Shown in pieces: positions 9,434-58,926 of a DNA stretch of 64,000 nt. This DNA is from Naegleria gruberi. Taxonomy: Eukaryota. Within the stretch, counting starts at the first letter, position 1, and every line of letters starts with the position of its first letter. Under the pieces are notes generated by a model. That model was not told the origin of the DNA. It ran no database searches and was given only the letters and a program-made list of their open reading frames with translations. The stretch lies in NCBI GenBank assembly GCA_000004985.1, contig GG738896.1; one strand, given 5' to 3'. Made by a program: the position numbers and the translations under genes.

Positions 9434-9594
9434 ATTTTTGACTTGATTTAGTTCTTAATTGGATCACATGGTGGTGCTTGTTCGAAGGATTACTTTGTAA
9501 CTTTCTTCAAATAAATTTGCTAATATGGAATTTATGCGAAGGAAGAAAATGTATTCTCATCAAAGAACAATTCACAATCACTAACAACATGAAT

Positions 9595-9665
9595 GCGTCG
9601 ATGGTTTAGTGGTAGAATACGGCGTTGCCATCGCCGTGACCCGGGTTCAATTCCCGGTCGACGCA
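9595..9665 (+). tRNA. tRNA-Gly (anticodon GCC)
   Basis: The 71-nt sequence GCGTCGATGGTTTAGTGGTAGAATACGGCGTTGCCATCGCCGTGACCCGGGTTCAATTCCCGGTCGACGCA folds as a cloverleaf. It has a 7-bp acceptor stem, GTGGTAGA D-loop, anticodon loop TTGCCAT, TTCAATT T-loop and discriminator A. Confidence 0.9.
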
Positions 9666-9925
9666 TGAATTATTTTTTATTTTGATGATTTTTTGATTTC
9701 ATGTCATAAATTTTGTTCGTCCAAATCTCGACATGTTATTCTACTATATTCTCTTGTTTAACGAAATTTTGTTTAGTATTCATCGAGATATTAAGCTCTG
9801 GATCCATACCATATTTCTATCTAAAAATGTCAAAATAAAAATAATTTGATATGTTACAAAAAATGTGACAATCTCCATCTTTTTATAACATTACTTGATA
9901 TTAACTGTAAGAATAAAGATGAATC

Positions 9926-10156
9926 TCATCCACCTCTCCAACTCAAAGCCAAGTAAATGGTACTATCCTGTTTCATTTCATAATCTTGAATTGTTTTTCC
10001 ATCTTCAAGTTTTTTGCCATTTAAAATCAATCGTTGACTTGGTGGAGGTATTCCTTGTTTTTCATTCACCAGTTCTTTAATTTTTTCGATAGAGTCTGTG
10101 CATTCAACGTCGATAGGGAAGGAATGACCTGATAGGGTCTTGATAAATAGTTGCAT
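9926..10156 (-). CDS. NEDD8: Ubiquitin-like modifier, NEDD8-like, ending exactly in RGG
   Basis: 76-aa protein about 50% identical to ubiquitin. It shares the NEDD8-like block EKIKELVNEKQGIPPxxQRLI, has a small residue (Ser) instead of Arg at position 72, and carries the di-Gly immediately before the stop. Confidence 0.6.
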   Translation of the reverse strand: MQLFIKTLSGHSFPIDVECTDSIEKIKELVNEKQGIPPPSQRLILNGKKLEDGKTIQDYEMKQDSTIYLALSWRGG

Positions 10157-10260
10157 TTTTTATTGTGTTTTTAGGATAATAATAATCATGAACTTTGTTT
10201 AAATAGTTCAGCTCTGAACAAGGAAATTACAAAACCTACAACTGAACACGAAACATGAAT

Positions 10261-10323
10261 CGCCCACCGTGGCACGACCATAAGGTTAAGAGCCTTGCGC
10301 TCTGCCGACTGAGCTAGACGGGC
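10261..10323 (-). tRNA. tRNA-Lys(CUU)-like sequence lacking ~10 nt of the T-arm (pseudo-tRNA or unusual tRNA)
   Basis: Minus-strand sequence GCCCGTCTAGCTCAGTCGGCAGAGCGCAAGGCTCTTAACCTTATGGTCGTGCCACGGTGGGCG. It matches canonical tRNA-Lys-CUU in acceptor, D-arm and anticodon arm (loop CTCTTAA), but GGTTCGAGCC of the T-stem/loop is absent. Confidence 0.5.
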
Positions 10324-10445
10324 TACATTCATTAAAAAAACAATTCATTGATATTCATCTCCCGAATAGCAAGGTTTTGACACATTTTCAAATAGGTTTT
10401 TTTCAAATAAGCAATGAGAGGAAAGGATTGCATTCAAAGAAGATA

Positions 10446-12341
10446 TTATTGTTTTTTCCAAACTTTATTCAAATTTCTTTGCACTTTGTGCCACACAGAA
10501 ATTTGAAATGGAATAAATGCATTGTATTGTTCCATAACTCTTTTCAACCTCATACTCTCCAAATCAATATTCTTTGCAAAAAATCTATAACATGTAGCAC
10601 AATGCTTGGCAGCCTCAATCATTATTTCCAAATCTACCTTGTATTGTTTTTTCAAATGTTCATAGACATCTCCATTATGTTGCAAAAGTTCCAAAATGAA
10701 TTTCTTATCCAATCTAAATTTTTCTGGAATAAAAGGGAAGGCAATAGCATTCAATTTAATAGCTTCCGTAATGAATTCTCTGTCCATTTTCAATTCATCA
10801 TTTGCACATCTCATAAAGCGTCCATCCTCCCTTATCTTATTCAACATATCTCCTCTTTGGTCAATAAATATATAACCGTGGTTAAGGGCATGCTCAATCA
10901 TTTTCTGGTTCTCTCGTATTTCATTTGATGCCCAATTCAGAGCAAATACGTCTTGATTAACAGCTTCGTAGACTACTTCCCAATCTGACTTTAATTCAGT
11001 AGAGGCAAAACTGACTGCTCTACCACAATTTCTCACGGCTTCCAAGACTACTTGCCTATCGTTTAGCAATCTTGGAGAGGCAAATTGTAGAGTGTGCCCA
11101 TTCTTTGAAACTGCAGAAATTACCACCTCCTTGTCATCCTTCAATTCAGCACAAACACTCATCAACACAAAAGGGTTGAACTCAATGGCTTCCATCACTA
11201 TCGACTTATTTCTCTGTAAGGTAGAATCTACATACTGAAATGCAAAAAAATCTTGTTTAAGTGCTGCCAATACAACTTCACGGTCTGCTCTCAAGTTTGA
11301 AGGAACATATTGCAAACATATGCCTTGTTTCTGTACGGCCATCAATGCTAAATCCTTTTGTCTTTTCATAGACTCTGATGCCCAATAATAAGCAGTAGCA
11401 TCATGTTGCATAGCTTCCAGTACAACTGCTCGTTCTGAACGCAACTCGAGAGATACATACTCAAGTGCCCTACCATTTTGCTGAACTGCCTTAATTACAA
11501 TTGATCTATTTCCCTTCAGATTTTCTGATGCGTATGCGAGTGCATAACCATAATTCGTTACAGCTTCATACACTACTTCATAATCATTCTTTAATTCATC
11601 AGAGGCAAATTGTAGCACACCACCTGCTCTTTTGACGGCTTGCAATACCAGTTGCTTATTATTAGAGAATGCATGTAAATTTACATGTTGAAGCATGTAA
11701 GGTTCTTTTTGAAGAGTTGCCTCTACCACATCCAGGTCCAATTTTAATCTGTGGGAGGTATATTCATAGGCCATTGCATTTGATGAGATAGCTTGCAATA
11801 CAAACCGTTTGTCATCCTGGAAAAAAGGACCTGCATATGATAAAGCCAATCCATTCTGTGAAATGGCTTGCCATACAATTTCCTCATCAGTTCTAAATTC
11901 CACAGCCCCATTAAAGAGAATTTTACCATCCAATTTCACTGCATCCAACATTATTTCTCTATCTATTAGACTAATAGGCACATATTTCAGAATGGTTGCA
12001 TTCTCCTTTACTGCCTTTCGAATAAAATCAACATTTCCAAGCCAAACCATTGGGAAATATTGACAAATTTGGGGAAATTTCCGATAACCTACAAAAACAC
12101 TCTCCTCATCTCCTAGGAATTCAAGAGGAAGTGCCTTTACAGTTTCAGGATCTCGTTCAAAGAAGGCCTCTTTGGCAGTTAACCATTTTCTTCTACCCTG
12201 CGATTGATAATCGAATTTAATCTTTAGCTTTTGACGATAAATGTGATGCGAAGGATCATCTAGTATGACAATCACTTGTGGAGAGATCAGGGTTGTATAC
12301 TCCTTCTCGGAAGATTTTAATGATGAATTATTGCAAATCAT
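10446..12341 (-). CDS. DUF4116-repeat protein
   Basis: About 13 tandem ~36-aa repeats of the pattern [RK]xxVLxAVxxNGxALxYASxELKxDxEVV, matching the DUF4116 repeat family as I recall it. 631 aa. Confidence 0.7.
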   Translation of the reverse strand: MICNNSSLKSSEKEYTTLISPQVIVILDDPSHHIYRQKLKIKFDYQSQGRRKWLTAKEAFFERDPETVKALPLEFLGDEESVFVGYRKFPQICQYFPMVWLGNVDFIRKAVKENATILKYVPISLIDREIMLDAVKLDGKILFNGAVEFRTDEEIVWQAISQNGLALSYAGPFFQDDKRFVLQAISSNAMAYEYTSHRLKLDLDVVEATLQKEPYMLQHVNLHAFSNNKQLVLQAVKRAGGVLQFASDELKNDYEVVYEAVTNYGYALAYASENLKGNRSIVIKAVQQNGRALEYVSLELRSERAVVLEAMQHDATAYYWASESMKRQKDLALMAVQKQGICLQYVPSNLRADREVVLAALKQDFFAFQYVDSTLQRNKSIVMEAIEFNPFVLMSVCAELKDDKEVVISAVSKNGHTLQFASPRLLNDRQVVLEAVRNCGRAVSFASTELKSDWEVVYEAVNQDVFALNWASNEIRENQKMIEHALNHGYIFIDQRGDMLNKIREDGRFMRCANDELKMDREFITEAIKLNAIAFPFIPEKFRLDKKFILELLQHNGDVYEHLKKQYKVDLEIMIEAAKHCATCYRFFAKNIDLESMRLKRVMEQYNAFIPFQISVWHKVQRNLNKVWKKQ

Positions 12342-12640: not shown

Positions 12641-15600
12641 TTATAAATCATCTAATTTGTTTGTTGTTCTCTTTCTCTTTAACACCAAAGCAATTACAAC
12701 AATAATTATCATCAGGACACTAAGCAGAACACAACATCCACCAATACTTCCCACAATAGCTCCAATTAAGACTGCAGAATTATCTGTCACAACTCCAGAA
12801 CCTTTAGAAGGTGATTCCTTCTTATAATTTTGATCAATGACAACAATGGAACGTTCAAGACTGTATGTGTTACAAGTTACTGAAACTGCCTTGTCAGTTG
12901 AAGTTTTAGTCTCAATTCCATCTGATTTCCATTCCTTTGCAGTTTCGTCGAAATATATGCAGGAAACATTCAAATTTTCATTGTTGGAAATAGTCAAATT
13001 TTCGAAGAGTATGGCAACTGGATCTGCAAGGTTTTGAACTGGTATTTTCTGTCCAGAGTTTGCTTTAGCAATCACAGAAGAAACAATTGGCGAAACAAAT
13101 CCCAAAGTTTCTGATGATATGGTTGTGGTTGATAATGAGCTCAACACAACAACTTCCTCATTCTTCAATGAAGGATCAATTCCTTCCAGATATACAGACA
13201 TTGTTGGAGGTAGGTTAATTTTGACAGATGGTAGCTCAATATTTCTGGAGTTCAATAGAGTGATATCCGAAACTGGTGTAATCAACGTTTCTGGAGCATT
13301 GAAAATTGGAGAAGTGCAAATATGTGCAATGGTCAATACTGTGCAAATATTTGGGGTAGAACAATCAGATCCCATGTAGCCAACCTTACAGGCACAATTA
13401 TTAAAAGATTGACAAATTCCATTTCCAGAACAAACTTTCGAATCAGTTTCGGCAAAACCAAAGCATGTTGTCTGGTTACTGCAAATCATTCCTTGAGAGG
13501 ATTGAGTAAGGAAGTATCCTGAATCTTTACAGTATGGTGTTAGCATTCTAATTCTATTATTTCCTCTATCGACAAATAGAATTCTGTCGCCCTTCAAAAC
13601 TGTCAAACTTAATGGATCATTGAGTAAAGATATCTTTGCATTGGAAGAATCACCGTTCAATCCTAATTGTAAGAATGATCCTGCAATCAATGAAATCTGT
13701 CCAGTCAAATCAACCTTTCGAATAACATGTCCTTGTCTTTCAGCAATAATCATTTCACCATTCGAAAGGAAAGCAACAGAAGCTGGTGCTTTCAAATAAG
13801 CAGAAGTAGCAGGTACATTATCGATTAGTGAGGTTAAAGTTGTTGAACCATTACCAGCAATTGTTGTAACCATTCCCATTTCAGATAAACTTGTTTTTCT
13901 TATTCTAAAGTTAATGGTATCGGCAAAAACGAGTTCATTGTTATGAAATTGCATATCTAGAACAGTTCTAATATTGGTTTGATTTGCTAGGTTATCTCCG
14001 TTATATCCATTCACATAACCACCAACAACTGAATCAATAAGTCCAGTCGAAAGTGAAATTTTACGAATCTTGTACAGAGTATCAGAAAAGTACAAGTAAT
14101 CTCCAAGTATTTTCATGGAATAGACAGTTCTGAGTTTGGCATTGATTGCAGGTCCCTTATCACCAATTCCACCTGCAATCGTCTGCACATTTCCAAAAGA
14201 AGAAATCTTTCTCATCAATAAATTCTTACTATCAGTAAAATAGAGCTCATTACTGAATGGAGATATAGAAACACCCAATGGTTGATTCAAATTTGTTGCT
14301 AGGGCGCTTTGGTCACCATTTGAAACTGTTAAGCCTGTTCCAGCAATGTTATAAATGATGGAACTTTCAAAATCCATCTTTTTTATGACATTTTGTCCTT
14401 TGCAATAAATAAATCTCCTTTTGGTGAGAATGTAATGAATCCTAAAGAACCGAGAGAAGTCGAGTTGGCCAAACCAGTTGTACTCCAAATGGAAGTTCCA
14501 TTCACACCAGCTACATTGTAAATAATTTGATTGTTGACATTAATTTTTCTGATAAGATAATTCACACTATCTGAGATGAAGAGCTCACCTGTAATTGGAT
14601 GAATGGAAAGTCCGTAAGGTGAAATATTTGAAATGGAAGCTGGCATTGCATCGCCATTATATTCAGAGAGACCACTTCCTGCAATTGTTGAAATTATTCC
14701 AGTACTATTCGAAATCTTTCTAATAACCTTATTTCCAAAATCAGCAATGAAAACATCACCTGTACTAGCGTTATAAGCAACATCTGTTGGATGATTCAAT
14801 TGGGCACTTGTTGCCAATTGACCATCTCCAGAATATCCAGCTAATCCTCCAGCAATAGTTAAAACTTGTTTGCTACTTGCCAAATATTTTCTTATTCTAT
14901 TGTTATTGTAGTCAGCAATAAGCAAATCACCATTTGGAAGAACAGATAATCCTAAATTTGAATTGAATTGTGCAATTGATGCATTTCCATCTTTAAAACC
15001 AGCTATTCCATTTCCAGCAATTGTTGAAATAATTCCAGTTTCGTGGTCAATCTTACGAATTGCATGATTAATTGAATCACAAATGTACAAATCACCATTT
15101 ATAGCAAACGCCAAACCAGCTGGTTCATTCAATTGGGAGGCAATCGAATTGAAATTGTCACCTGCCAAGGTTGAAACTGAACCTGCCACTGTCGAAACTC
15201 TTTTATCCTTCTTTGAAACTTTCAATATTTTAAAGGTTGTTCCAATAAACACATCTCCTGATATTTCAGATTGCGTAACAGAATAAGGATAATTCAACGC
15301 AGTTTCATTTCCCAATTTACCATCAATATCATCTTGAACAAGACCTACAACACCAGCCACTGTTTCAATGAGTGAACTACTTTCAATATTACTCAATGAA
15401 TTTACTCTCAACACTCTATAATTATTGGTATCGGCAATTAGTAATTCATCTGTTTGATTATTATAGAAGGAGGTATAGGGTCTTTTAAGAGCTATTGTGG
15501 ATTGGTAGCCAGAGGTGCCACCTGTATAGATTTCAGAGCCATCTCCTGCTATGGTGTTGATAATGTTGGTTGTCAAGTTAATGTGTCGAATTCTGTTATT

Positions 15601-16626
15601 TGAAGCATCAGCAATATATAATTTTTTTCCATAAATGGCTAAACTTGTAATTCCATGAAAAGTTGCATTTAATGCATTTCCTCCATCTCCACTAAATCCT
15701 GGAGTAATTCCTGCATTATTGGCAATAACAGTTCGTACACCATTTGAAAATTTAACAATTTGATCGTAAGTTGCTTCTGCCACATACAAATCTCCATTCG
15801 AATCAAATACGATTCCTTTAGGTCCAAAAGACGAAACATAGGTATAAACACTGCCATTATTTGCAATGTACTTGATTGCATTATTGTCAAAATCAGAGAA
15901 ATACATTTCACCACTCACAGGATTGAAGACAATCGCCCAAACTTCACCAACATTCGAATATAAAGCCAAAGATCCCTCAGCACTGTTTCCCTTCACACCA
16001 CTACCAACAATATTGTAAATGATTCCATTGACAACCTTTCTAATTCTATAATTGTAGGTATCACAAATAAAAACATCACCATTCGAAACTGGAACGACAC
16101 ATCTTGGTTGATTCAATGAAACAGATAATGGAGAAACACCAGAAGATGAAGAGTCGAATCCACCACCTGCGAATGTAACCATGTTGTAATTGTTGATGGT
16201 AGAATTAAAATAAACCTTTCGAATTCGAGCATATTCAGCAATATACAGTTCTCCATTCGAATTCAGAGCAACACTACTCGGTGTCAACAATGTATCATTA
16301 GCGAGAGTGAAATAACTGCTTTCTCCTGCTGCCAAAGTTGGTGATCCAGCAGCGAGATGTGAAAAACCATTCGAATCAACATATCTTACCTGATGATTGT
16401 ACATGTCAGAGAAATAGACATTCCCATTCAATGGTGAAACAGCAACGCCAAGTGGGAAAGTCATGCCAACTTGAGTGGCCTTGACTCCCTCTCCGTACAT
16501 TTCTCCCAACAGTGTGGTTAGTTTGAAATCGACAGGTTTAGTTTGAGAAAAACATCTGACTGTCCATGCAAAACAAGAAATCAACACAACAACCACAAAC
16601 AGATTTACAGGTTGTAAGGTTTTCAT
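12641..16626 (-). CDS. Large NHL-repeat, EGF-like, single-pass transmembrane surface protein (teneurin-like architecture); two ORFs joined across a frameshift or micro-intron near 14364-14389
   Basis: Signal peptide MKTLQPVNLFVVVVLISCFAWTV, then more than 20 NHL-type repeats (GDLYIAD/NRIRKI motifs) spanning ORFs 14383-16722 and 12641-14488. These are followed by a Cys-rich EGF-like region, a TM helix (IGAIVGSIGGCCVLLSVLMIIIVVIALVL) and a basic tail. The two ORFs overlap in adjacent frames, and both frames show NHL motifs across the junction. Confidence 0.65.
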
Positions 16627-16993
16627 TTTTTTGGAATGATATGAGAATCTGAATAGATTCGTTATTGTCGTAATAAAAGATTTTTTTGGAATGATAGAGG
16701 TGATGATTGTTTCACTCGCCATTACCGGGAAAAAATATATTTAATCCCAAGGTTACACATTGTTTTACTTACAACCCTAAAATGAGAAATTATTGTCGTT
16801 TTCAATTCTTACTACCCTATCGTCAGTATGGTGAATTGAGCCAAATTGCTCAAGTATGGTAAATTGAGCCAAATTGCTCTTGGATTCGGCAGGTATTCTC
16901 CATTGTAAATTGATTCTGTTGGTAGAATCTCCACTTACAATAATTGCAATAATTGCGCTCATAATTATCAATCTCTTTAATCCATTCCAACAT

Positions 16994-39737: not shown

Positions 39738-42700
39738 ATGTCACAACAGCAGTTCATTGAAATTTACATTTCCAACTACAAGACCATCACACCTGATGAT
39801 CGTCACACTAAACCCTACACCAATTACATTCTCGATATTTCTCTCCAATCCGATAAAAATCCTCAAGAAATTTTCTATCAATGGTCAATAGAATATCGAT
39901 ATTCACAATTGAGAAGTTTTCACTCTCTACTTTCCAAGTACTTTAAAAAGCTTCCGACATTTCCTCCAAAAGTAAGTTTAATTTTTTTAAATATTTTAAT
40001 TTTTTTTAAATATTTAATATTTTGTATATTTTGTAAATTAGAAATTATTTAATAGATCATCGGAAATGATTGAAAAAAGACTTGTGGAATTAAAAAAGTA
40101 TTTTAAACAATTATTTAAAAATAGAAATGATATATTTAACAAATCGGGAACTCTTTCGTTTATTTTGAAATTTATCAACATTCCAAATGAATTAATGCAA
40201 TATGTAATAGTTACAAAAGATGATTTAAATTCGGTGGATTCTCTCACTTTTTTAAATTCAAAACTTGACAAGTCAATTGAATCTCCTTTTTGTAAAGTAA
40301 TTTTCCATAAGGGAGTGAGATATAAATTATCGAAATTTATTGGAAATGGTACATATGGTAAAGTTTATCATTCTGTCGATGATTCAGGATATGAGTATGC
40401 AATTAAGGAAATTCCTGCATTGTATGTTGATACAATGTTTGTGGAAAACAATGTAAAACTCATCTCTGAATGTAATGAAACATTTCTGAGATATATATTG
40501 AGAATTTTAGATACATTTCAAATTGCTAATAACTATTATGTCGTTACAGAATATTTTAATAAGGGATCTCTTAATAATATACGAAATGATGTGAAAATGA
40601 GTGTTTCTACAATTTTACAAATAATTATACAAATGGTCACTTCATTAAGATTCTTAAATTCAAAGAAAATGGTACATTTGGATATTAAGGAGGGAAACAT
40701 TTTTGTTCAATTCTTTAATGGACATCGAATTTCACTAATTTTAGGAGATTTGGGATTGAGTAGAAAAATTAATCCTTCCATTCAATTGAATACTATTAAC
40801 AATAATATTAATAATATAGAAATAGTTAAAGAAAGCTTATTCGAATCATTATCCAGTTCTGCATCTGTTGGAACACCATTATATCAAGCTCCAGAAATGT
40901 TACAACAAGAAAATCCTTTCATTCATGAAAAGAGTGATATTTATTCTTTAGGTTGTACAATATTATATTATTTATTTGGTAAAATTAAAGTATTGAATCA
41001 AGAAAAAGAATTAGATTGGGAAAAGATCAATTCTCTCTTTCAAAAACTTGAAGAACCAGAATGGAAATATATTTATGAATTGTTACAAAAAATGTTAACA
41101 ATTGATGTTAACGAGAGAGCAGACACCAAAACAATACTTGATTTTATATTTAAAAAACAAGATGCATTGCCATCGGAAATGAATGAAGAAAAAAGAAATC
41201 AATTCATCCTGGACGAAATGGAAAGTATTGATTTACTAACAAGTTATGTAAAATTACAAGATTATTTCAAAACAAGTGATTCCATAATAAGAGATTCTCT
41301 TTATGAAAATGGAAATCAATTGGAAGATTTACCAGAACATTTTAAAAACAATTCCAACTATTTTAACATTGCAGCTCAACAAAATTCAATGTTGCATAAA
41401 GACTCAGATCAATTTAATTATTATCTAGAGCTAGCTGCTGATTCGAAACCAAATAACAATGAAATTACTCTCCTTACAAAAAATTCCTCTGAACAAAACA
41501 GAAATGATTACTACTTTGCTTTGAGTTCAGTTTCAAAGGACGGAAAAACTTTAAGATTTGTTGGACATCTTTTGAAAATGAATAGAACTATTGTAATGAC
41601 AGCTGTGAAACAAAATCCATTGGCAATTCAATATGCCCCCAGTTCATTAAGGAAAGATAAGGAAATAGCAAAGGAGGCCCTTGTTTACAATGGCAGAACT
41701 TTGGAATATTTAGAAGAGTTACAAGATGATGAGGAAATTGTACTCGCAGCTGTTTCTGTTCATGGAATTGCCATAAAATTTGCTTCTCCAAGATTGAGAT
41801 CTCACGAAAATATAATCAGACGAGCTGTCAAAGTTGATGAACGTGCCATTGAATATGCTGATACTTCAAATTTATCACTGAAATTATTATTTGAAATTAT
41901 TTGTCAAAATATTGATGCATGTTATTATTTGAAATATGACGAAAAGTTAGTGATGGACTATGTGAAACAAACCAATGATAGCAATGCGAAAACATTTCTA
42001 TTGTTAATGGAAAAAAAGGTATCCATGTCGAAAATGATTCAATTGGCCGACGATATTGGAAATCCACTTGCCCAACTTTATGTTGCCCTACATAGAAGGG
42101 ATAATCCTGAAAGAATGCTCAATGCTGCCAAGCAAGGTAATTTACAAGCTCAATTGATATTGGCACGTTGGTTACAGATGTATGGACATGTTGATTCGGC
42201 AGTGGATTGGTTGAAAAAATGTGCCTCCCATTCATATCTTCCTGCAATTGTTTTTCTCTGTTCATTACTTGATCCAGCTACGGATGGTGAATGGTTTTTG
42301 AAAGGGGCTCATTTAGGAGATGGTGAAATTCAATACGTTTATGGCTTATCAATTTTTTATGAAAAAAATCGTACTCAAATTAATTATCAGGGATTTTATT
42401 GGTGTAAACGAGCTGCTCATCAGGGGTTTCCTAGAGCTCAATATCACATGTCTCAATGTTACAAGTATGGATTAGCAGTTAATAGAAATCCTGAGAAGGC
42501 TTTCAAATGGATGAAACTAGCTGCAGAGAATCAAGTGATAGTAGCTCAATATCAACTTGGATTATTTTATGGAGGTGGAAAAGGAACTGTGCAAGATGTC
42601 AAAAAAGCATTTTACTGGTTAGAAACTTCTGCCAAAAAGAAAAATTGGGTTGCCTTAAATGAACTTGGACTAATTTATATGAAAGGTCGTTATGATGTTA

Positions 42701-43062
42701 AAGTAAATTATGATAAGGCAATTGAATATTTCAAGAAATCTCTCCAAACCCTTGAAGATTACAAAAATAGTCCCATTAGTGATGATTTTGATCCGTTTGT
42801 AAATCCTCCAAAAGGTAATGGTGAATATCTCTATTTAAATATTGGAGAATGTTATTTCCTTAAACAGAAACGTGAGGAAGGAATTGAATGGATGATGAAA
42901 AGTATTTCATTAGGATGTGAATATGCAGTAGAAGTATTGGAAGAGTATACAGGTATCGTTGTTAGTACAGATGCCGTAGGGTGGCAAAATTATTGTTTTA
43001 ATAATACAGAGGAAGTAATTTTGAATATGCATAGAGCTGTAGATAGCAAATCACAAGAATAA
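39738..43062 (+). CDS. Multidomain PX domain + protein kinase + DUF4116 repeats + Sel1/TPR-like repeats; two exons with a 70-nt intron (39972-40041)
   Basis: Exon 1 (39738-39971) encodes the PX N-half with the RSFHSLLSKYFKKLPTFPP motif. The intron runs gtaagttta...aaattag, and exon 2 is in frame through the annotated Met at 40066. The kinase subdomains are present (GNGTYGKVY, AIKEI, HLDIKEGNIF, DLGLS, GTPLYQAPE), though the canonical HRD reads HLD. They are followed by 3-4 DUF4116 repeats (VKQNPLAIQYAPSSLRKDKEIAKEAL...) and then multiple Sel1-like repeats (AQYHMSQCYKYGLAVNRNPEKAFKWMKLAAENQVIVAQYQLGLFYGGGKG...). Confidence 0.7.
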
Positions 43063-49734: not shown

Positions 49735-49854
49735 GGCTACGGCCATATCACGATGAATGCACCTCATCCCGTCCGATTTGAGAAGTTAAGCATCGTAGAG
49801 CCACATCAGTACTGAGGTTGGAGACAACTTGGGAACCTGTGGTGCTGTAGTCTT
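49735..49854 (+). rRNA. 5S ribosomal RNA, copy 2
   Basis: Identical to copy 1 except for one substitution (CATCGTAGAGCC vs CATCGTCGAGCC). Followed by TTTTT. Confidence 0.9.
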
Positions 49855-50767: not shown

Positions 50768-52225
50768 TTAATGCGACTTGTTATGTTGAAATAAATCTTG
50801 TATGCAACGAAAAGGACTTTCCAAACTTAAACAAGCAATTATTATAATATCCTTATCATTTCTTATTAATGGATCTTCAACAAATTCAAGTAAACTTCCT
50901 CGTCTGTAAACAGCTTCCTTTACAACATCATAATCATTCCTAAGCACATAGGACGCAAATTTGATTGATTCTGGATTGCTTTTGACAGAAGCCAGCATGA
51001 TTTCCTTATTATTTCTTAATGAAATAGGGACATGCTCAATTGCATTTCCACTGGGGAATGTAACAGCATCTAAAACAATATCAAAATCATCCTGTAGTTC
51101 CTTAGGTACAAACTTTAAAGCATCACCATTCCATCTTACTGCAATTTTAGCAATTTCCTTTTTGTTTTTCAATCGGTCAGAGGCAAATTGTAAAGCTAGT
51201 CCATTTTTCTCCACTGCAATTCGAACTATTTCTTCATCATCCTTAAATTCCTCACTTGTATTTTTAAGGGAAAGTGGCGAATAACCAACACATTCCTTTA
51301 CAATAGCCCGTAAATATTCCTGTTTGAGTTTACAATTCTCTTCAAAATCCTGTGTTAAAAATATCCTTTCATTCCACATTTGAAATTCATGGGCTATTTC
51401 CAACATCTCCTTGTGTGTGAAGGGTTTCGTTTCATGCGACATTAACCTCTTTACAATGTTTTTCACATCACTATTGCTCTCCTCTTCTCTATAATCGTAG
51501 TAAAACTTGAAATCATGGTACGTTTCATAATTGTGAAATCTGAAAAAATCACCATAAATATTAATGGCAACAGAGTGTAATTCCTTTTTAAGTCTGAGAG
51601 AAGCAAAATCATAAGCAATTACTTCATCACAAGCAAAATCATCGATAGCATCGTTATTGAACAAATAAAAAGCATCTGAATACATGGCTGCTATCACAAC
51701 ATCCACATCATCTCGCAATTCTTTTGAAGCAAATTCAAGAGCTAGCCCACAAGTAGAGACAGCTGCCAAAGCTGCTTTCTTATTGTTTCCACATTCTTTT
51801 TGATACCAATCAAGAGAACAAGGATTAAGTGCACATGCCACTTGACTAAACTCCTCATAAATATATAAATTCAACGTCCCTCCAATGTCAATACTATCTT
51901 CACTGCTAAATTTAAATAATTCTTCCGTAATATATTGTCCATCTCTTTTCCAATTCAATTTTAATTGTTCAAAAGCAAATTCCCTTTCATCATTGTCTTG
52001 ATTACATTTTTCAAAGGCCTTTAGGATAGGGTGAATAATCAATTCGTATTTCACATTTTTTGGAACATCACGAATTTGTTGCATTAAAATTGGAGATTTA
52101 AAACTTTGATCGAGAAGTATTCGTACATGGGAAGAGTTGGAATTGATATTGTCGTAGGTTGCCTTCTTTTTGAGAGGAGGTGAGGAAACGGAATTCTCTA
52201 GGCAACTTCTTTTCATTTTTTCCAC
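50768..52225 (-). CDS. DUF4116-repeat protein (third paralogue in the window)
   Basis: C-terminal two-thirds consist of repeats such as VGYSPLSLKNTSEEFKDDEEIVRIAVEKNGLALQFASDRLKNKKEIAKIAVRWNGDALKFVPKELQDDFDIVLDAV, the same motif family as 10446-12341 and the middle of 39738-43062. Confidence 0.65.
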   Translation of the reverse strand: MEKMKRSCLENSVSSPPLKKKATYDNINSNSSHVRILLDQSFKSPILMQQIRDVPKNVKYELIIHPILKAFEKCNQDNDEREFAFEQLKLNWKRDGQYITEELFKFSSEDSIDIGGTLNLYIYEEFSQVACALNPCSLDWYQKECGNNKKAALAAVSTCGLALEFASKELRDDVDVVIAAMYSDAFYLFNNDAIDDFACDEVIAYDFASLRLKKELHSVAINIYGDFFRFHNYETYHDFKFYYDYREEESNSDVKNIVKRLMSHETKPFTHKEMLEIAHEFQMWNERIFLTQDFEENCKLKQEYLRAIVKECVGYSPLSLKNTSEEFKDDEEIVRIAVEKNGLALQFASDRLKNKKEIAKIAVRWNGDALKFVPKELQDDFDIVLDAVTFPSGNAIEHVPISLRNNKEIMLASVKSNPESIKFASYVLRNDYDVVKEAVYRRGSLLEFVEDPLIRNDKDIIIIACLSLESPFRCIQDLFQHNKSH

Positions 52226-52551
52226 TTTCGAATTTTAATTTTCATGCTATGAAATAGATAGAATTTCGTCCATTGATCAATGGTATAGAGGCGATTGGAA
52301 TAGTTTGAGACATTTTGGAGTTGAAACAAGAGATGATGAAATATTCTTCCTTTACGACATTTTTGGAAAAAAATAGAGTCAAAGTTGAGGGATCCAAAAA
52401 AGGAAATACTAAATATTTTTAAAAAATAAAAACGGAATTATGGAGCATATCATCTACACGATCAACTGACTAAAAATCGACAAAAAATAACATATATTGA
52501 ACTAGAAAATATAAAATTATTAATCATTACCCCCCATTTAAATCATTAAAA

Positions 52552-52670
52552 AGACTACAGCACCACAGGTTCCCAAGTTGTCTCCAACCTCAGTACTGAT
52601 GTGGCTCGACGATGCTTAACTTCTCAAATCGGACGGGATGAGGTGCATGAATCGTGATATGGCCGTAGCC
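52552..52670 (-). rRNA. 5S ribosomal RNA, copy 3 (minus strand)
   Basis: The reverse complement equals copy 1 except that GATGAATG reads GATTCATG, i.e. the GAA trinucleotide is reverse-complemented. It shares the ~30-nt upstream flank TTGATAAATCTTAATTTA[A/T]GATATTTAAT with copy 1 and is followed by a T-run. Confidence 0.9.
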
Positions 52671-52859
52671 ATTAAATATCATAAATTAAGATTTATCAAA
52701 AGAATGTGCTCTGATTCGAATATGGAATAAACTCAGGTATGCAATTAGGATGAATACTACATTCACCAATTCTAAATATACAGATTCAAATTGATGAGTT
52801 TGTGGATTATGTTATACTAGTAATATTCTAATTTTGGAAAGTTTAATTTTAAAAAAAAA

Positions 52860-54481
52860 ATGTCTCAATTAGAAATTGCTGCGCAAGCAGTTGATTGTTA
52901 TGTTGACGAAATTAAAGGATGGTGCAAGTGCAAGGTTTATATTTATGAGCCATCAAATGAGAAAGTTTGGAAAGATGCAGAATTGAGTGGTTTGTGCACG
53001 TAAGTTTTATTGGAAATGTTTCGAAATGAGAATTTATTGGTTGGTAGAATTCATTTACAGTTACTGTCGAATACGATTTCGTTGAATGTTACAAATTTAA
53101 TAACGAAACAAGTTTCATTCAAAGNNNNNNNNNNNNNNNNNNNNNNNNNNNNNNNNNNNNNNNNNNNNNNNNNNNNNNNNNNNNNNNNNNNNNNNNNNNN
53201 NNNNNNNNNNNNNNNNNNNNNNNNNNNNNNNNNNNNNNNNNNNNNNNNNNNNNNNNNNNNNNNNNNNNNNNNNNNNNNNNNNNNNNNNNNNNNNNNNNNN
53301 NNNNNNNNNNNNNNNNNNNNNNNNNNNNNNNNNNNNNNNNNNNNNNNNNNNNNNNNNNNNNNNNNNNNNNNNNNNNNNNNNNNNNNNNNNNNNNNNNNNN
53401 NNNNNNNNNNNNNNNNNNNNNNNNNNNNNNNNNNNNNNNNNNNNNNNNNNNNNNNNNNNNNNNNNNNNNNNNNNNNNNNNNNNNNNNNNNNNNNNNNNNN
53501 NNNNNNNNNNNNNNNNNNNNNNNNNNNNNNNNNNNNNNNNNNNNNNNNNNNNNNNNNNNNNNNNNNNNNNNNNNNNNNNNNNNNNNNNNNNNNNNNNNNN
53601 NNNNNNNNNNNNNNNNNNNNNNNNNNNNNNNNNNNNNNNNNNNNNNNNNNNNNNNNNNNNNNNNNNNNNNNNNNNNNNNNNNNNNNNNNNNNNNNNNNNN
53701 NNNNNNNNNNNNNNNNNNNNNNNNNNNNNNNNNNNNNNNNNNNNNNNNNNNNNNNNNNNNNNNNNNNNNNNNNNNNNNNNNNNNNNNNNNNNNNNNNNNN
53801 NNNNNNNNNNNNNNNNNNNNNNNNNNNNNNNNNNNNNNNNNNNNNNNNNNNNNNNNNNNNNNNNNNNNNNNNNNNNNNNNNNNNNNNNNNNNNNNNNNNN
53901 NNNNNNNNNNNTGCAAAGAGAATGGTAGGAGAAGATTACTTCCTTGCCATATTGCATCTCAGTCTGGAAATGTGGAGATTTTGGAATTTTTGATTGACCA
54001 CGCTTGTAAATATTATCTGAATAATAGTACAAAACTTCAACAGTTGAGTGAATTTAACAATGCATCTATTTTCAATAATTCATTGAATGAGTTCATAAAA
54101 CAATTTCTTTCAATCAAAACCCAAGATGTAAATAGTCAAACTCCACTTCACTTGGCAGTTCGGGAAGGTCACACTTCTTGTGTAAAACTATTACTTGAAA
54201 AGGGTGCTGATCCACTTTCAGTTGATCATATTGGTAAAACAGTAGTTGATTATTCAAGAATGAACTTTATTAATAAGCATGTTATCATTGAAGAATTGCA
54301 AAAGTATGTGGATTTTGCAATCTTACCTCCACTAGAACCAATACCTATCATTCCAAACATTGCTGAGTCAGAATCTATTGAAGAAGAAATAATTGTAAAT
54401 CAAGAACCAGAGCTACAATCTGAATCAAGCAATTCTAATCAAGAACAAGATGAAGAAAATGAGAACATTTATTTTATGTGA
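52860..54481 (+). CDS. Ankyrin-repeat protein spanning assembly gap 53125-53911; first exon 52860-52999, 48-nt intron (53000-53047)
   Basis: ATG at 52860 encodes MSQLEIAAQAVDCYVDEIKGWCKCKVYIYEPSNEKVWKDAELSGLC. The donor gtaagtttt and acceptor ggtag join in frame to ORF 53010... After the gap the sequence reads CHIASQSGNVEILEFLI and TPLHLAVREGHTSCVKLLLEKGADP, which are ANK repeats, followed by an acidic C-terminal tail. Confidence 0.6.
53125..53911. other. Assembly gap (787 N)
   Basis: Run of N. Confidence 1.
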
Positions 54482-54575
54482 AACCTTCTTATGAGACAAG
54501 TATTTTTGAAATGGCACTTTCTAGTTTCATCCATTTTCAAATGGTTGATGTATTGAAGACACAACACAATAAAAA

Positions 54576-55100
54576 ATGGCCAAAAGAAAGACACCAAAAC
54601 CACTTGCCTCTCTTCGAATTCTCTCCTATTCCGATAAGAAGAAACTTCAGTCTCAACCACAATATAGAACCAGACGTTCAAAGCCACCAATCGATTGGGA
54701 ATTAACCATTTACAAATGTGATTCCTCTCAAATGTCTTCTGATGAATTTGTTACAACCTACTATCAGACTGATCCTAAAAACCCTGCATTGGAACGATTT
54801 GATGAGATTGAACTGACTGATTTTCTCTCCAATCATTGTGACATTTATCTGGAACAACTCAAGCCAATTCCATCATCTGTTTCAGTGGGAAACTCCAAGA
54901 AGAATAATCCAAGAGCAGAGTTTGAAGCCAATGATACCAATTGGTTGTCTGAATATTTCGAAGATATCTCATTTGCAAGTTTTGATTCACTTCCTACCAA
55001 ATACACAAATTGTGTTCTCACTGTAAATAACCCAATTTTAAAGAGAATGGTTTGTTATGGAGATGATGAAGCCGTGTATTGTTTTGAATTACAACTCTAA
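54576..55100 (+). CDS. Hypothetical protein (174 aa), basic N-terminus
   Basis: Uninterrupted ORF with no recognised motif. The N-terminus MAKRKTPKP is basic and NLS-like. Confidence 0.35.
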   Translation: MAKRKTPKPLASLRILSYSDKKKLQSQPQYRTRRSKPPIDWELTIYKCDSSQMSSDEFVTTYYQTDPKNPALERFDEIELTDFLSNHCDIYLEQLKPIPSSVSVGNSKKNNPRAEFEANDTNWLSEYFEDISFASFDSLPTKYTNCVLTVNNPILKRMVCYGDDEAVYCFELQL

Positions 55101-55188
55101 TACTAAAATTGTATTCTTTTTTAGAAGTGTGAATTGATTCTTTTGGTGGTGTCAGCTGTCTGTTTTAGACATTAAAAAAAATACAACA

Positions 55189-55731
55189 ATGCCTGTTTCT
55201 CAAGATTTGGAGGAAAAAGTGAAAAGTATGTTTGGTTTCATACCAAACAGTTTAGCAGAAATGTGCAAAGATCCTTTCACCATACAAGTTTACCTTCAAG
55301 GAATTAATTTAAAGAAGGAGCATGCCACTCTCACATTTATCCAACGTCACATTGTTGAATATATTGCTTCATCAATGAATGGTGATGAATACTGTACACA
55401 AATGCACGCCAAATTCCTGAAAACTAAAGCAGGATTTACCAATGAAGAATTATTGGAAATGAAATATGGAGGATTACCTTCAGCTAGTTCTCATCCCGAT
55501 GTTATTCCCATCATCAAACTTGTCCGTACCATCATCAATAAGAAAGGGAAATTATCACAGGAAGATATTAGTACATTTGAAAATATGAAAATTACAAGGG
55601 ATCAAATGTATGAAATTATAACATCAATTCATCTAAAATCCATACAAAATTATGTAAATAATTTGTCGAATCCAATCTTGGATGAACGTTTCTGTGATAA
55701 TGTTTCTCAAACAACAACAACACGAAAATAA
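55189..55731 (+). CDS. Carboxymuconolactone decarboxylase/AhpD-like (CMD family) protein
   Basis: IASSMNGDEYCTQMHAKF matches the CMD/AhpD core motif (N.C.YCxxxH) with its surrounding helical context. 180 aa, intronless. Confidence 0.55.
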   Translation: MPVSQDLEEKVKSMFGFIPNSLAEMCKDPFTIQVYLQGINLKKEHATLTFIQRHIVEYIASSMNGDEYCTQMHAKFLKTKAGFTNEELLEMKYGGLPSASSHPDVIPIIKLVRTIINKKGKLSQEDISTFENMKITRDQMYEIITSIHLKSIQNYVNNLSNPILDERFCDNVSQTTTTRK

Positions 55732-55937
55732 ATCATCACTTTTAAATTAGTATCTAAATATGATCAGGAAAATTGGATATTAATTTAAATAATAACAGAT
55801 AGAATATAATATTTAATAATTATTTACAGATCCGATCATTGCAAGTTTAATTTTCTGACCAGATCAAAAGCTCATTCAATGTTCGCTTTTTATTTATCGC
55901 GCCATCTGAATTTGGCGCCTCAAATGTACAAGTAAAT

Positions 55938-58303
55938 TTGAAAAACGGTAAGGTTAAAAAAATGAATCAACAACAACAATTGAGGTTGCCGCCTCCTCAA
56001 TCACCAGGAATCATGATGCAAGAACAACAACAACAACAGCAGGCGAGAGGAAGACCAAACCTAACTTCGTATTATAATAGTAGCATTAATAATCAATATC
56101 CAGTTCCATCAATGCCTCCCTCTCCGAGTAATTTTGGAGGAACACCAAATGGGAGATTAATGTTTGGAAAACCAACATCATCAACACCAAATTCTTCAAA
56201 TAATAATGGAAGACCATCTTCTGCTCAACCAATGAGAACTGTTTCCAGACAAGAAATTAACAATAACATGAATAGAATGAATAATAGACAGCAACGTCCA
56301 ACGAGTGCATCACCAGCTGCCGTAAAGAGTGCTCACTTTACGATGGGAGGAACAGAGCCACTTAAACCAAGTGAGAGAAAAATTGGAAGAAAGCACTTTG
56401 TCAATGCTCCAACAATTATTACAACCACAACTTCATCTTCTGATAAACTTGATGTAGCAGAGACATTGACAATGACATCTTCAGGTCTAAGGACATCAAA
56501 AAGTGATTTGGATAAACCATTCCACTCTCTTTACCAAGCTTATTGTCGAAGAATAAGAATAGAACCTTTGGAATTTATTGTAGCAAACAGTTTAACAAAA
56601 GGTCTGTTTGAAATTGATCTCGACTTGATCCCACAAGAACATTGGAAGAGATGTTTGGCTGCTCTCAAAAACTCTCGTCAATCCTTCAATTCCATTAGAA
56701 TTGCTTGGGGTGAATCAAATTATGTCAGAGATTTCTCAACCATCACCAACAACAAACCTAAGACTACATCATCCTCTCCATCTCTCCTCTCCATCAAAGA
56801 ATCCATGCTGATCCATCAAATGAGAAGCACCAATCAGTTAGAAAGAAAGACAAGCTCGAGGTCTATTAACCTTGTCGATCCAATTACATATGCTGACTCG
56901 CTAAAGTTTGTCAGAATTCTTGCTCCCTGCTTTAGTGCATTTTTGTCAAAATTGGAAATTATAGGAATACCCATCTCAAAACAATGTACATCTTTCATGC
57001 AAAAAGGTCTGTTAGAAGCAAAGAGTTCACTGAGATGTCTTTCATTAAAAAACACAGGTCTTGGAGATGAGGCTTTCAGAGATATTGGATGCCTGCTTAC
57101 TCAATTCATCAAATTAAGCAAGTTAACAGTGAGTGGTTGTTGCCTTTCTGATGACAGCTCCCAATACATTCTCAATTTAATGAGGGAAAGAATTAATCAA
57201 AAGAGCCATGAAGCATGGTTAGTAAGTTTAAGAGGAAACCAGGAAGCCTATGATAGTATTGAAGATTTGACATCGTTGGATCTTTCTGATAACTATTTCT
57301 CTGATTCTACAGCTAAAGCCATGTCTCATATCTTGTATGATGATCAAACGTTGAAAAGTAAGTTATTTGTTTTAGCTCTATCTTACAATATTCCTTTTTA
57401 GAATTGAATTTAAGTAAGAATATTATTGGTGTAACTGGTATTTCATTATTCTTTGATGTGGTAGTTCACAATGAAGTAATTGACTATATTGACTTGAGCG
57501 CCAACTTTGGTGTAACAGAATTTTCAGAAAAGTTTGATTCTCACACTCTGTTCACCAATTTCTTCGATTCACACGACTTTATATTCCAAAGAATTTCTAA
57601 AAGGAAAAAGAAAAAGACCTCTGAAGGTGAAGAAAAAACAAAAACCTCAAAGAATGGGAAAAAGAAGGATTCCAAGATTGTTAAACTCAAAGTACCATCC
57701 AAGTCTGATAGAGATGCTCATCAAGAACTCGAATCCCTTGCGTCTGATTCACTCTCGCCAAGGTCAGACGAAACAGATGAAAGTGGTTATGAAAGTTGTA
57801 CAGGTAGAATTGAAGGAAATGACAAGAAATCAAAAGAGGAAGAAGAAAAGGAGAAGAAGAAGGCTGAAGAGAGAGAAGAAAAAACTCTCAGGTTGAAGCG
57901 TGAGTCTGAGCTCATTAACATGCAAATTGAATTCAAAAACATGGATGATCTGTTGGTGAAACTCAAAAAGAACAAGTTTGAAAATGAGAATAGAATTCAA
58001 AGCCAAGAGAGAAGTCTAACAGATCTCCAACAAGCACTTGTACAACTCACTCAACTTGTGAATGAACTTCAAGAAGAAAAACAAACCTTAAACAAGCAAC
58101 TAATTGATACCAATGAGAAACTGGAAAAGTCGCAAACCAATGTACAGTCGCTAACTTCTATAGTGGAAGCAAATTCCAACTCTTCGAAAAGGAAGGATTT
58201 CATTCAACCTGACATTCATATTGATCCATCCCTGAAACCATCTCAAGTTGCAAATGAAGATATTGCATTCAGAATTACAGAATTATTTAATAAGAAAAAA
58301 TAA
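55938..58303 (+). CDS. LRR (ribonuclease-inhibitor-like) protein with Q/N/S-rich N-terminus and C-terminal coiled-coil; two exons with a 44-nt intron (~57358-57401)
   Basis: The donor aaaa|gtaagtt and acceptor cctttttag|aa join ORF 55938-57401 to ORF 57404-58303 in frame (LKSK|LNLSKNIIGV). LRRs include LSLKNTGLGDEAFRDIGCLL, LTVSGCCLSDD and LDLSDNYFSD. The C-terminal E/K-rich coiled-coil is ERSLTDLQQALVQLTQLVNELQEEKQTLNKQLIDTNEKLEKSQ. Confidence 0.65.
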
Positions 58304-58419
58304 TATGCAACAGTCACGGGAGTATATTATGAAAATCTAAGCAATTAAATCTAGGAAGTGTAAATAAATATTTAAAGTAATAATTATTTGTAAATTTCAA
58401 TTAAATACATAACAAAAAA

Positions 58420-58926
58420 ATGAGTGAACAATTACCTGAAGTCACCTACCGATTTTATGAAGGTGAAAAAGATTTGGACTTGATTAAACAAATTATGGAT
58501 ATTCATCTGAGTGAACCATACTCTGTTTATACATATAGATTTTTTGTGAATGAATGCCCAAAGCAAACTGTTCTTGCTTTTATTGATGGAAATTTCGTCG
58601 GAGCTTGTGTTGGAAAAAGTGAAATGCACTTGGGAAAAACAATGCGTGGATATATTGCCATGTTGGCTGTTGAAAAGGAACACAGAAAGAGAGGTATTGC
58701 CACAGAATTGGTAAAACGAGTGATTGAAGAAATGAGATTAGCAGGATGTGATGAAGTTGTTTTGGAAACGGAATTAACCAATGCATCAGCTTTAACATTT
58801 TACGAAAGATTAGGATTTGTCAGGGATAAGAGATTACACAAATATTATTTGAACCAGGGATGTGCTTTCCGATTGAAATTATATCTGAAAAACACAGTCC
58901 AACAACAACAAGAAGAAACCAATTAA
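58420..58926 (+). CDS. NAA30: N-alpha-acetyltransferase 30 (NatC catalytic subunit, MAK3-like GNAT)
   Basis: GNAT motif A (GYIAMLAVEKEHRKRGIATELV) and the conserved YRFYEGEKDL and SEPYSVYTYRFF blocks characteristic of Naa30/Mak3. 168 aa. Confidence 0.8.
   Translation: MSEQLPEVTYRFYEGEKDLDLIKQIMDIHLSEPYSVYTYRFFVNECPKQTVLAFIDGNFVGACVGKSEMHLGKTMRGYIAMLAVEKEHRKRGIATELVKRVIEEMRLAGCDEVVLETELTNASALTFYERLGFVRDKRLHKYYLNQGCAFRLKLYLKNTVQQQQEETN

Follow-up and report, generated by a model that had tools for sequence, protein, structure and literature searches.

The locus and its nuclear setting

Within the window, i.e., the whole stretch of 64,000 nucleotides that was analysed, the locus considered here comprises a tRNA-Gly(GCC) gene, an intronless reading frame for a ubiquitin-like protein (termed Ubl below) and a tRNA-Lys(CUU)-like sequence with a truncated T arm. 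A sequence-only reading made earlier had placed these three elements here, and each of them is found again with ARAGORN, Rfam, Pfam and the list of open reading frames. The features are as follows.

9595 to 9665, plus strand: functional-looking tRNA-Gly(GCC) gene, 71 nt (ARAGORN; Rfam RF00005, full model 1-71)
9673 to 9678, plus strand: T6 run resembling a Pol III terminator, 8 nt 3' of the tRNA-Gly (reading of the sequence)
9926 to 10156, minus strand: divergent ubiquitin-family reading frame, intronless, 76 codons plus a TGA stop, ending in ...LALSWRGG-stop (list of open reading frames; Pfam)
10157 to 10260, minus strand: 104-bp spacer from the tRNA-Lys remnant to the Ubl start codon (alignment of the window with the strain contig L001)
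10261 to 10323, minus strand: tRNA-Lys(CUU) element of 63 nt, best read as a pseudogene (Rfam alignment, consensus of 129 copies, L001)

The tRNA-Gly(GCC), which is the sole tRNA called by ARAGORN in the whole window (at 9594-9666), scores 66.9 bits against Rfam RF00005 at 9595-9665 on the plus strand and is canonical, with an intact B box, GGTTCAATTCC. The T6 run downstream would serve as its terminator, as such runs generally do for Pol III. The tRNA-Gly is an ordinary Pol III gene. It lies on the strand opposite to Ubl, 260 bp past the Ubl stop, and the tRNA-Lys remnant lies on the same strand as Ubl, 104 bp upstream of the Ubl start, with the spacer at 10157-10260 presumed to hold the Ubl promoter and 5' UTR. 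The sequence-only reading described Ubl as sandwiched between the tRNAs. Intergenic spacers of 100-300 bp are the rule across the window, and since spacers this short are usual there, nothing beyond coincidence is found in the arrangement on the evidence seen; the adjacency of the tRNA-Gly, Ubl and the tRNA-Lys remnant is most likely a coincidence in a compact genome.

The window is gene-dense, with about 33% G+C, and contains three dispersed 5S rRNA genes (Rfam) together with reading frames that include those for GATA, DUF4116, NHL, kinase-DUF4116-Sel1, tubulin-chaperone-like and Pescadillo proteins. The Pescadillo reading frame (58942-60831) is 82% identical to that of N. fowleri and 78% identical to that of N. 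lovaniensis, with Acrasis, the next named taxon, at about 41%, and genes for PGAP1, thioredoxin/glutaredoxin, BCAS2 and Pescadillo follow one another in this order in the window, N. fowleri and N. lovaniensis alike. Three long reading frames of the window have no exact protein match on record. Based on the 82% identity of Pescadillo, the common local gene order and the 5S rRNA genes, we take the window as nuclear DNA of a Naegleria amoeba. It is noted that around Pescadillo N. fowleri and N. lovaniensis (L125, L126) are partially syntenic with the window, at a place 49 kb away from the three-element locus, and that these two loci contain no tRNA or 5S genes. The DUF4116 gene adjoining the locus has no orthologue above 37% identity in the protein search, its best match sitting on a bacterial contig, and the DUF4116 loci of N. 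fowleri and N. lovaniensis (L123, L124) are not syntenic, having neither a tRNA nor Ubl nor any other gene of the window. Nothing that bears on this locus in particular came up in the literature on the metagenome project from which L001 comes, on Naegleria NEDD8 and on Naegleria tRNA genes.

The tRNA-Lys(CUU) element and its truncated T arm

The element at 10261-10323 (minus strand) scores 37.9 bits against RF00005, with E = 2.2e-4 for the whole window, which is above the gathering score of 29, and it is not called in the ARAGORN run on the window. The Infernal/Rfam check of this region thus gives a tRNA match, but not a normal tRNA of 73 nt. In the cmscan alignment a single nt stands in for 11 model positions of the T stem-loop, the acceptor and D arms are intact, and a non-canonical pair is flagged in the anticodon stem. 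The sequence of the element in the window reads GCCCGTCTAGCTCAGTCGGCAGAGCGCAAGGCTCTTAACCTTATGGTCGTG^CCACGGTGGGCG, where ^ marks the deletion junction, lying between window positions 10273 and 10272.

For comparison, metagenome DNA was scanned with the pattern AGAGCGCAAGGCTCTTAACCTT, which runs from the D-stem 3' strand through nt 42 and sets no condition on position 43 or on the T arm. The scan gave at least 120 loci with at least 129 tRNA-Lys(CUU) copies from many eukaryotes, and across the 129 eukaryotic copies listed the sequence is very conserved, with the consensus GCCCGTCTAGCTCAGTyGGTAGAGCGCAAGGCTCTTAACCTTGTGGTCGTGGGTTCGAGCCCCACGGTGGGCG. The T arm is complete in every listed copy that is not cut by a contig end, none being truncated; the few degenerate copies in the list show one extra nt in the T stem (L017, L019, L112) or a divergent T region (L060, L110). 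No exact Naegleria-type copy (GCCCGTC acceptor plus AGTCGGC D loop) occurs among the at least 120 loci fetched, and the ancestral sequence of the Lys element referred to below is the one deduced from the copies of other eukaryotes rather than from a full-length Naegleria gene of its own.

Relative to the 129 copies listed, the bases missing from the element are exactly GGTTCGAGCC, nt 52-61, in agreement with the sequence-only reading, which had found the T arm short by 10 nt. This decamer, G52-C61, takes in all of the T loop, together with the 3'-terminal part of the 5' T-stem strand on one side and the opening base of the 3' strand on the other, and in place of 5 bp and a 7-nt loop with T54-Psi55-C56 only GTG-C-CAC is left of the T arm. 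The T-loop decamer is at the same time the B box, to which TFIIIC mainly binds in type-2 Pol III promoters, and the B-box promoter GGTTCGANNCC, which is the T stem-loop region, is not present in the element. Among the 63 retained nucleotides, 61-62 match the consensus of the 129 copies listed. The acceptor stem, the D arm with the A box and the CUU anticodon loop are those of the consensus save for a D-loop C, which occurs in other full-length copies as well, and the acceptor and D arms thus agree with those of functional copies. The sequence-only reading had called the anticodon arm perfect too, but this does not hold, because the A at window 10281 (G43A) turns pair 27-43 into a C.A mismatch and the anticodon stem is no longer fully paired, at a site where G43 is invariant (129/129 copies listed). 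Note also that the minimum-free-energy fold of the 63-mer is not a cloverleaf and is no stabler than those of shuffled sequences (z = -0.48), and that no second T-arm fragment or further tRNA-like element is found within the window, even at permissive thresholds.

The element can also be followed in a second sequence. L001, a 515-bp metagenome contig of ENA (ERZ929261/ERR1078381), is the sole other public sequence that encodes the exact Ubl protein. It begins inside the Lys element, with GGCTCTTAACCTTGTGGTCGTGCCATGGTGGGCG, and has the same truncated T region, the junction of the 10-nt gap, GTGCCA[C/T]GG, being identical in L001 and the window. Over the 515 bp the two sequences differ by 3 substitutions and 2 indels, and from these differences L001 is judged to come from a closely related, slightly diverged strain that was independently assembled. 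L001 keeps G43 and hence a perfect anticodon stem; since G43 is present in L001 and in all the listed copies, the A43 of the window is derived and stem-breaking. Private to L001 is a C-to-T substitution at a CpG in the T-stem remnant, which changes CCAC to CCAT. Moreover, L001 has 22 extra nucleotides directly 3' of the Lys element, GTTTTTATTTCACAATATGATA, which are not in the window; this indel is bounded by GTTT microhomology and supplies a TTTTT terminator at +8 in L001, whereas in the window the first T4 run comes only after about 27 nt. Of the three substitutions, two lie in the Lys remnant, within 34 nt (Fisher p = 0.014 versus the rest and 0.048 versus other non-coding DNA), a comparison that involves small numbers and covers the 3' 34 nt only, a stretch at the end of a contig and so more prone to assembly errors. 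The depletion of change that is expected of a functional tRNA is clearly absent from the remnant, with no sign of purifying selection.

The best reading of the Lys element is that it is a young tRNA-Lys(CUU) pseudogene, with the simplest history being one deletion before the split of the strains and neutral decay thereafter. A recent pseudo-tRNA was one of the two possibilities named in the sequence-only reading, and it fits what is found: the element equals the consensus without GGTTCGAGCC and with G43A, the T5 terminator has been lost in the window strain, and there are private changes in both strains. In the proposed pathway, a single 10-nt deletion in an ancestral, conserved tRNA-Lys(CUU) gene would have taken out G52-C61 and with it both the B box and the T loop, and this deletion would be older than the split of the two sampled strains. 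As general tRNA biology suggests, without the B box the high-affinity TFIIIC binding would be expected to be lost, and without the T arm RNase P/Z, the CCA-adding enzyme and eEF1A would accept any transcript poorly as a substrate. Later drift would then have brought, in the window strain, the G43A change that breaks the anticodon-stem pair and a 22-nt deletion that takes out the T5 terminator and, in the L001 strain, the C-to-T change at the CpG in the T-stem remnant. Given the score above the gathering threshold, the A box and the intact anticodon stem and T5 of L001, it is conceivable that some residual transcription of the remnant persists.

The other possibility named earlier, that the 10-nt gap arises from an assembly or sequencing error and the true gene is a normal 73-nt tRNA-Lys, has its prior plausibility alone to recommend it. 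The ENA ERZ929261 contig L001, in spite of its 3 substitutions and 2 indels relative to the window, has the identical gap junction, and since the same gap is present in an independent assembly, an assembly error is excluded, barring a systematic error common to both; we give an artefact next to no weight. It is also very improbable, though not to quite the same degree, that the 63 nt represent a working nuclear tRNA-Lys(CUU) without a T arm, or some other functional tRNA-like RNA, kept by selection. The truncated element is common to two diverged strains, it keeps an intact acceptor, D arm and anticodon loop and an Rfam score above gathering, in L001 the anticodon stem is perfect and a T5 terminator follows the element, and the 12-nt remnant of the variable and T regions is about as long as the TV-replacement loops found in the mitochondrial tRNAs of nematodes, all of which would be consistent with such a function. 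However, the element has no B box, its fold is no better than those of shuffled sequences, and the substitutions between the strains cluster in the remnant instead of being depleted there, with the window strain carrying a stem-breaking change at a site invariant in the 129 copies listed and having lost the T5 terminator. A private substitution in each strain together with the lost terminator therefore argues for a pseudogene and not for a working T-armless tRNA. Moreover, in PMC7730189 and PMC6158502 arm-less tRNAs are documented only in metazoan mitochondria, where the enzymes of processing and translation are co-adapted to them.

With the eukaryotic cytosolic tRNA-Lys(CUU) genes the element has in common the D arm, the variable loop, the CUU loop and an acceptor stem with two G.U pairs, while it differs from them in having no nt 52-61, in the C27.A43 pair and, in the window strain, in having no T5. 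With the T-armless mitochondrial tRNAs of nematodes and arachnids it has in common a cloverleaf minus the T arm and a linker of about 12 nt, but those tRNAs (PMC7730189, PMC6158502) are mitochondrially encoded, form whole sets and are served by co-adapted EF-Tu and CCA enzymes. By contrast, the Lys element is a single nuclear copy, one deletion away from a canonical gene and decaying; it is neither organelle-encoded nor part of a set, its context being nuclear, its tRNA-Gly neighbour canonical and no other truncated tRNA being present in the window.

As for a role of the remnant towards Ubl, the idea that it has been kept, 104 bp upstream, as a structured element of the promoter or 5' region of the Ubl gene is less likely still than the proposal of a third modifier given below. 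RNase P/Z need the stack of the acceptor and T arms, and for this reason a role of the remnant as a "punctuation" signal of these enzymes for the Ubl mRNA was rejected as unsupported.

The ubiquitin-family reading frame

The product of the Ubl gene (9926-10156, minus strand) has 76 aa, MQLFIKTLSGHSFPIDVECTDSIEKIKELVNEKQGIPPPSQRLILNGKKLEDGKTIQDYEMKQDSTIYLALSWRGG, followed by the stop; it starts with MQLF and ends with LALSWRGG. The translation confirms what had been noticed earlier, namely that the reading frame ends at RGG-stop with no C-terminal propeptide. The product scores 82.3 bits against Pfam PF00240 (cut-off 25.4), and its best phmmer match in the PDB is ubiquitin, with 82 bits per domain. 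From the single sequence, AlphaFold2 predicts a beta-grasp fold with confidence (pLDDT 87.2), and for this model the top 50 Foldseek matches in the PDB are all ubiquitin, with TM up to 0.96 and an rmsd of about 1 Å.

We consider the reading frame to be a real gene, a paralogue within the ubiquitin family that is restricted to this lineage. It is conceivable, although we hold it unlikely, that it is not a working gene but a ubiquitin unit, retro-copied or duplicated, that is in decay and still open by chance, and the lack of an orthologue in the word-index protein search and the pseudogene next to it could be taken in this sense. Against this, the 38 amino-acid changes from ubiquitin have come without any stop, frameshift or indel, the start and the stop fall exactly at ubiquitin positions 1 and 76, the core hydrophobic positions are changed conservatively, and the AlphaFold2 model is confident. 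Moreover, the in-frame codon-usage score of +0.384 bits/codon falls among those of the long reading frames of the window (0.28-0.89), the 5 other frames all score below zero, and GC3 is host-like, so that host-like codon usage is seen in the correct frame alone. In addition, the coding DNA of Ubl is identical in L001 and the window while the flanks have changed, with 0 differences in 231 coding bp versus 3 in 254 non-coding bp, a contrast that is not significant (p = 0.25).

A 5-mer word search of a protein index with 5.8 billion clusters finds no homologue of Ubl save the identical metagenome copy. In an exhaustive HMMER search, the 150 top matches listed are all multi-domain proteins of the poly-ubiquitin type with at most 51% identity, the best single domain among them having 78.9 bits and about 50% identity to Ubl; polyubiquitins fill these 150 matches, and single-domain relatives at 55-70% identity could lie behind them. 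A scan of viral contigs found no relative of Ubl, which leaves a giant-virus origin without support.

In agreement with the earlier estimate of about 50%, Ubl is identical to human ubiquitin at 38/76 positions, in a gap-free alignment, and it is also identical at 38/76 to human NEDD8, for which the sequence used was checked against 1NDD. The scores are higher for ubiquitin than for NEDD8, both with phmmer (82.0 versus 72.9 bits) and with BLOSUM62 (219 versus 197). At the positions that discriminate between the two, 8 match ubiquitin alone and 8 match NEDD8 alone, and at 14 positions where ubiquitin and NEDD8 agree Ubl departs from both, including K11H, H68Y, V70A and L73W. Human ubiquitin and NEDD8 are identical to one another at 44/76, and thus resemble each other more than Ubl resembles either. 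Residue 72 is Ser, as the sequence-only reading had it, where ubiquitin has Arg and NEDD8 has Ala, and residue 73 is Trp, giving the tail LSWRGG; L8/I44, most of the L8/I44 patch, K6/K27/K33/K48 and the C-terminal Arg-Gly-Gly are kept.

Since the ubiquitin of Naegleria differs from human ubiquitin in only three residues (PMC9741609), Ubl with its 38/76 is a separate paralogue. It has neither the near-invariant sequence nor the LRLRGG tail of bona fide ubiquitin. Nor is it closer to NEDD8 than to ubiquitin, and the Ala72 of NEDD8/Rub1, on which E1 selectivity depends, is absent together with its L73-R74-G75-G76 tail, Ser72 sharing with Ala72 just the property of not being Arg. The earlier label "NEDD8-like" is therefore given up, because the identity to ubiquitin is equal, the scores for ubiquitin are higher, 14 positions are off both and Ala72 is missing. 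Judged by its sequence, Ubl is best called a lineage-restricted, divergent protein of the ubiquitin family, apparently neither the ubiquitin of the organism nor a recognisable NEDD8 orthologue. The presence of COP9 signalosome subunits in N. gruberi (PMC4860701) makes a neddylation system probable, in which NAE (APPBP1-UBA3) would activate NEDD8 for its attachment to cullins, and a conventional NEDD8 is probably encoded elsewhere in the genome.

That Ubl is nevertheless the NEDD8/Rub1 orthologue of the organism, evolving fast, appears improbable to us. Its residue 72 is small and uncharged, its I15, D16, T20, I26, E28, V30, E32 and K54 are those of NEDD8 and not of ubiquitin, and its 38/76 identity to human NEDD8 is lower than, but of similar order to, the 45/76 of yeast Rub1. 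This reading is at variance with the identity to ubiquitin, which equals that to NEDD8, and the higher ubiquitin scores, with the ubiquitin-like F4, Q2 and L50-E51-G53, with A72 and L73 not being kept, with the 14 positions at which Ubl differs from what ubiquitin and NEDD8 have in common, and with the top 50 Foldseek matches, all of which are ubiquitin. In addition, plant and human NEDD8 are identical at 64/76, next to which an orthologue at 50% would be an outlier.

Set beside ubiquitin (PF00240, LRLRGG), Ubl has the same length, the same beta-grasp fold (TM 0.96), the terminal RGG, and M1-Q2, F4, K6, L8, K27, K33, I44, K48, Y59 and L69 in common, while the identity is 50%, with the replacements K11H, K29L, K63Q, H68Y, V70A, R72S and L73W, and the gene is monomeric, encoding neither a fusion partner nor an additional residue at the C-terminus. 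With NEDD8/Rub1 it has in common 50% identity, a non-basic residue 72, E28 and E32 and a single-domain gene, but it has Ser rather than Ala at 72, Trp rather than Leu at 73, F4 rather than K4, and no C-terminal propeptide. Urm1 and FAT10 are ubiquitin-like proteins that end in Gly-Gly without processing, and Ubl is like them in that the stop comes directly after Gly-Gly, so that no C-terminal hydrolase step would be needed; those families, however, are far from Ubl in sequence, whereas Ubl is a close structural copy of ubiquitin itself.

Proposed activity of Ubl and meaning of the locus

We propose that Ubl would be a small modifier of the ubiquitin type, made with its Arg-Gly-Gly end already free at translation. 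The exposed Gly-Gly would then permit the activation of Ubl and its conjugation to lysines without processing by a C-terminal hydrolase, where an E1 that tolerates Ser72/Trp73 would activate it, and the same two residues would alter its recognition by E1 and by deconjugases. Since the fold core, L8/I44, the lysines and the free Arg-Gly-Gly are kept, conjugation to lysines without prior proteolytic processing would be its most likely activity. A bolder proposal, which we offer tentatively and regard as rather doubtful, is that Ubl may be a third ubiquitin-type modifier, belonging to one Naegleria lineage and made in the mature Gly-Gly form, whose Ser72/Trp73 tail would confer an E1/E2 or deconjugation specificity of its own.

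For the locus as a whole, we put the probability at about 0.78 that it consists of an ordinary tRNA-Gly, a dead copy of tRNA-Lys(CUU) and a real, lineage-restricted ubiquitin paralogue, which are adjacent by coincidence. An annotation should mark the Lys element as a pseudogene and label the reading frame "ubiquitin-like", not NEDD8. With the Lys element, one 10-nt loss of the B box and the T loop would be enough to kill a highly conserved tRNA gene, the remnant of which then drifts quickly. The case takes away the suggestion of a nuclear T-armless tRNA and has little weight for tRNA biology, being a matter of ordinary genome wear.

Finally, we note that while the tRNA part is ordinary, what is new here is Ubl, an apparently lineage-restricted member of a well-known family. 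It is a modest lead, i.e., a compact, intronless and apparently orphan paralogue of ubiquitin whose di-glycine is exposed from the start and whose Ser-Trp tail is unusual. Should the proposed conjugation prove true, Ubl could be a natural probe of the tail specificity of E1 and of deubiquitinases (DUBs) in a deep-branching eukaryote.

The CATGAAT motif around the tRNA elements

It is noted that both tRNA elements, the tRNA-Gly(GCC) gene and the 63-nt tRNA-Lys(CUU) pseudogene (the Lys remnant), are adjoined by the + strand heptamer CATGAAT, and the sequence holds three more ATGAAT copies at most 40 nt upstream of the Lys remnant:

9588-9594, +, CATGAAT, directly 5' of tRNA-Gly
9664-9670, +, CATGAAT, overlapping the tRNA-Gly 3' end
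10254-10260, +, CATGAAT, directly 3' of the Lys remnant
10327-10332, 10343-10348 and 10353-10358, the Lys remnant's own strand, ATGAAT

Across the 64 kb the heptamer occurs only 14 times on the + strand and 7 times on the − strand. At the Lys remnant, the leader AUGAAU is complementary to the trailer AUUCAU, with a match of 6 bp. The motif may be a leader/trailer motif or a Pol III start-site motif. The window has five Pol III genes, and all but one of them carry AAT directly before +1; the Lys remnant has AATGTA.

Dispersed 5S rRNA genes and gene order around Pescadillo

Three dispersed 5S rRNA genes are present in the window, scoring 100-106 bits:

34077-34195, +, 5S rRNA gene
49735-49853, +, 5S rRNA gene
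52552-52670, −, 5S rRNA gene

The copies at 34077 and 52552 have in common an upstream sequence of about 30 nt, ttgataaatcttaattta[a/t]gatatttaat, which is absent from the copy at 49735. Relative to the other two, the copy at 52552-52670 has TGAA replaced by TTCA near 5S positions 20-23, a 4-nt inversion by which ATGAAT becomes ATTCAT.

No 5S genes were found in the Pescadillo loci of N. fowleri and N. lovaniensis, where the order PGAP1, thioredoxin/glutaredoxin, BCAS2 and Pescadillo is the same as in the window (52000-58900), while on the other flank of Pescadillo the arrangement in the window is unlike that of the two loci. The window's o55189 ORF corresponds to a CMD-family gene of those loci, and its N-terminal 46-61 residues have their match about 10 kb off in the other two species.

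NHL-repeat and DUF4116-repeat ORFs

Two repeat families are represented by the following ORFs:

12641-14488, −, NHL-repeat ORF
14383-16722, −, NHL-repeat ORF
10446-12341, −, DUF4116-repeat protein ORF
40066-43062, +, DUF4116-repeat protein ORF
50768-52225, −, DUF4116-repeat protein ORF

The two NHL-repeat ORFs, which overlap in separate frames, are probably a single gene split by an intron or a frameshift. One of the DUF4116-repeat proteins is a fusion with a protein kinase and Sel1 repeats. Because the 631-aa DUF4116 protein adjoining the tRNA-Gly, ubiquitin-like ORF and Lys remnant cluster has no orthologue above 37% identity among database entries, and because its best match is carried by a bacterial contig, these comparisons suggest that the DUF4116 family is fast-evolving and has possibly been exchanged with bacteria.
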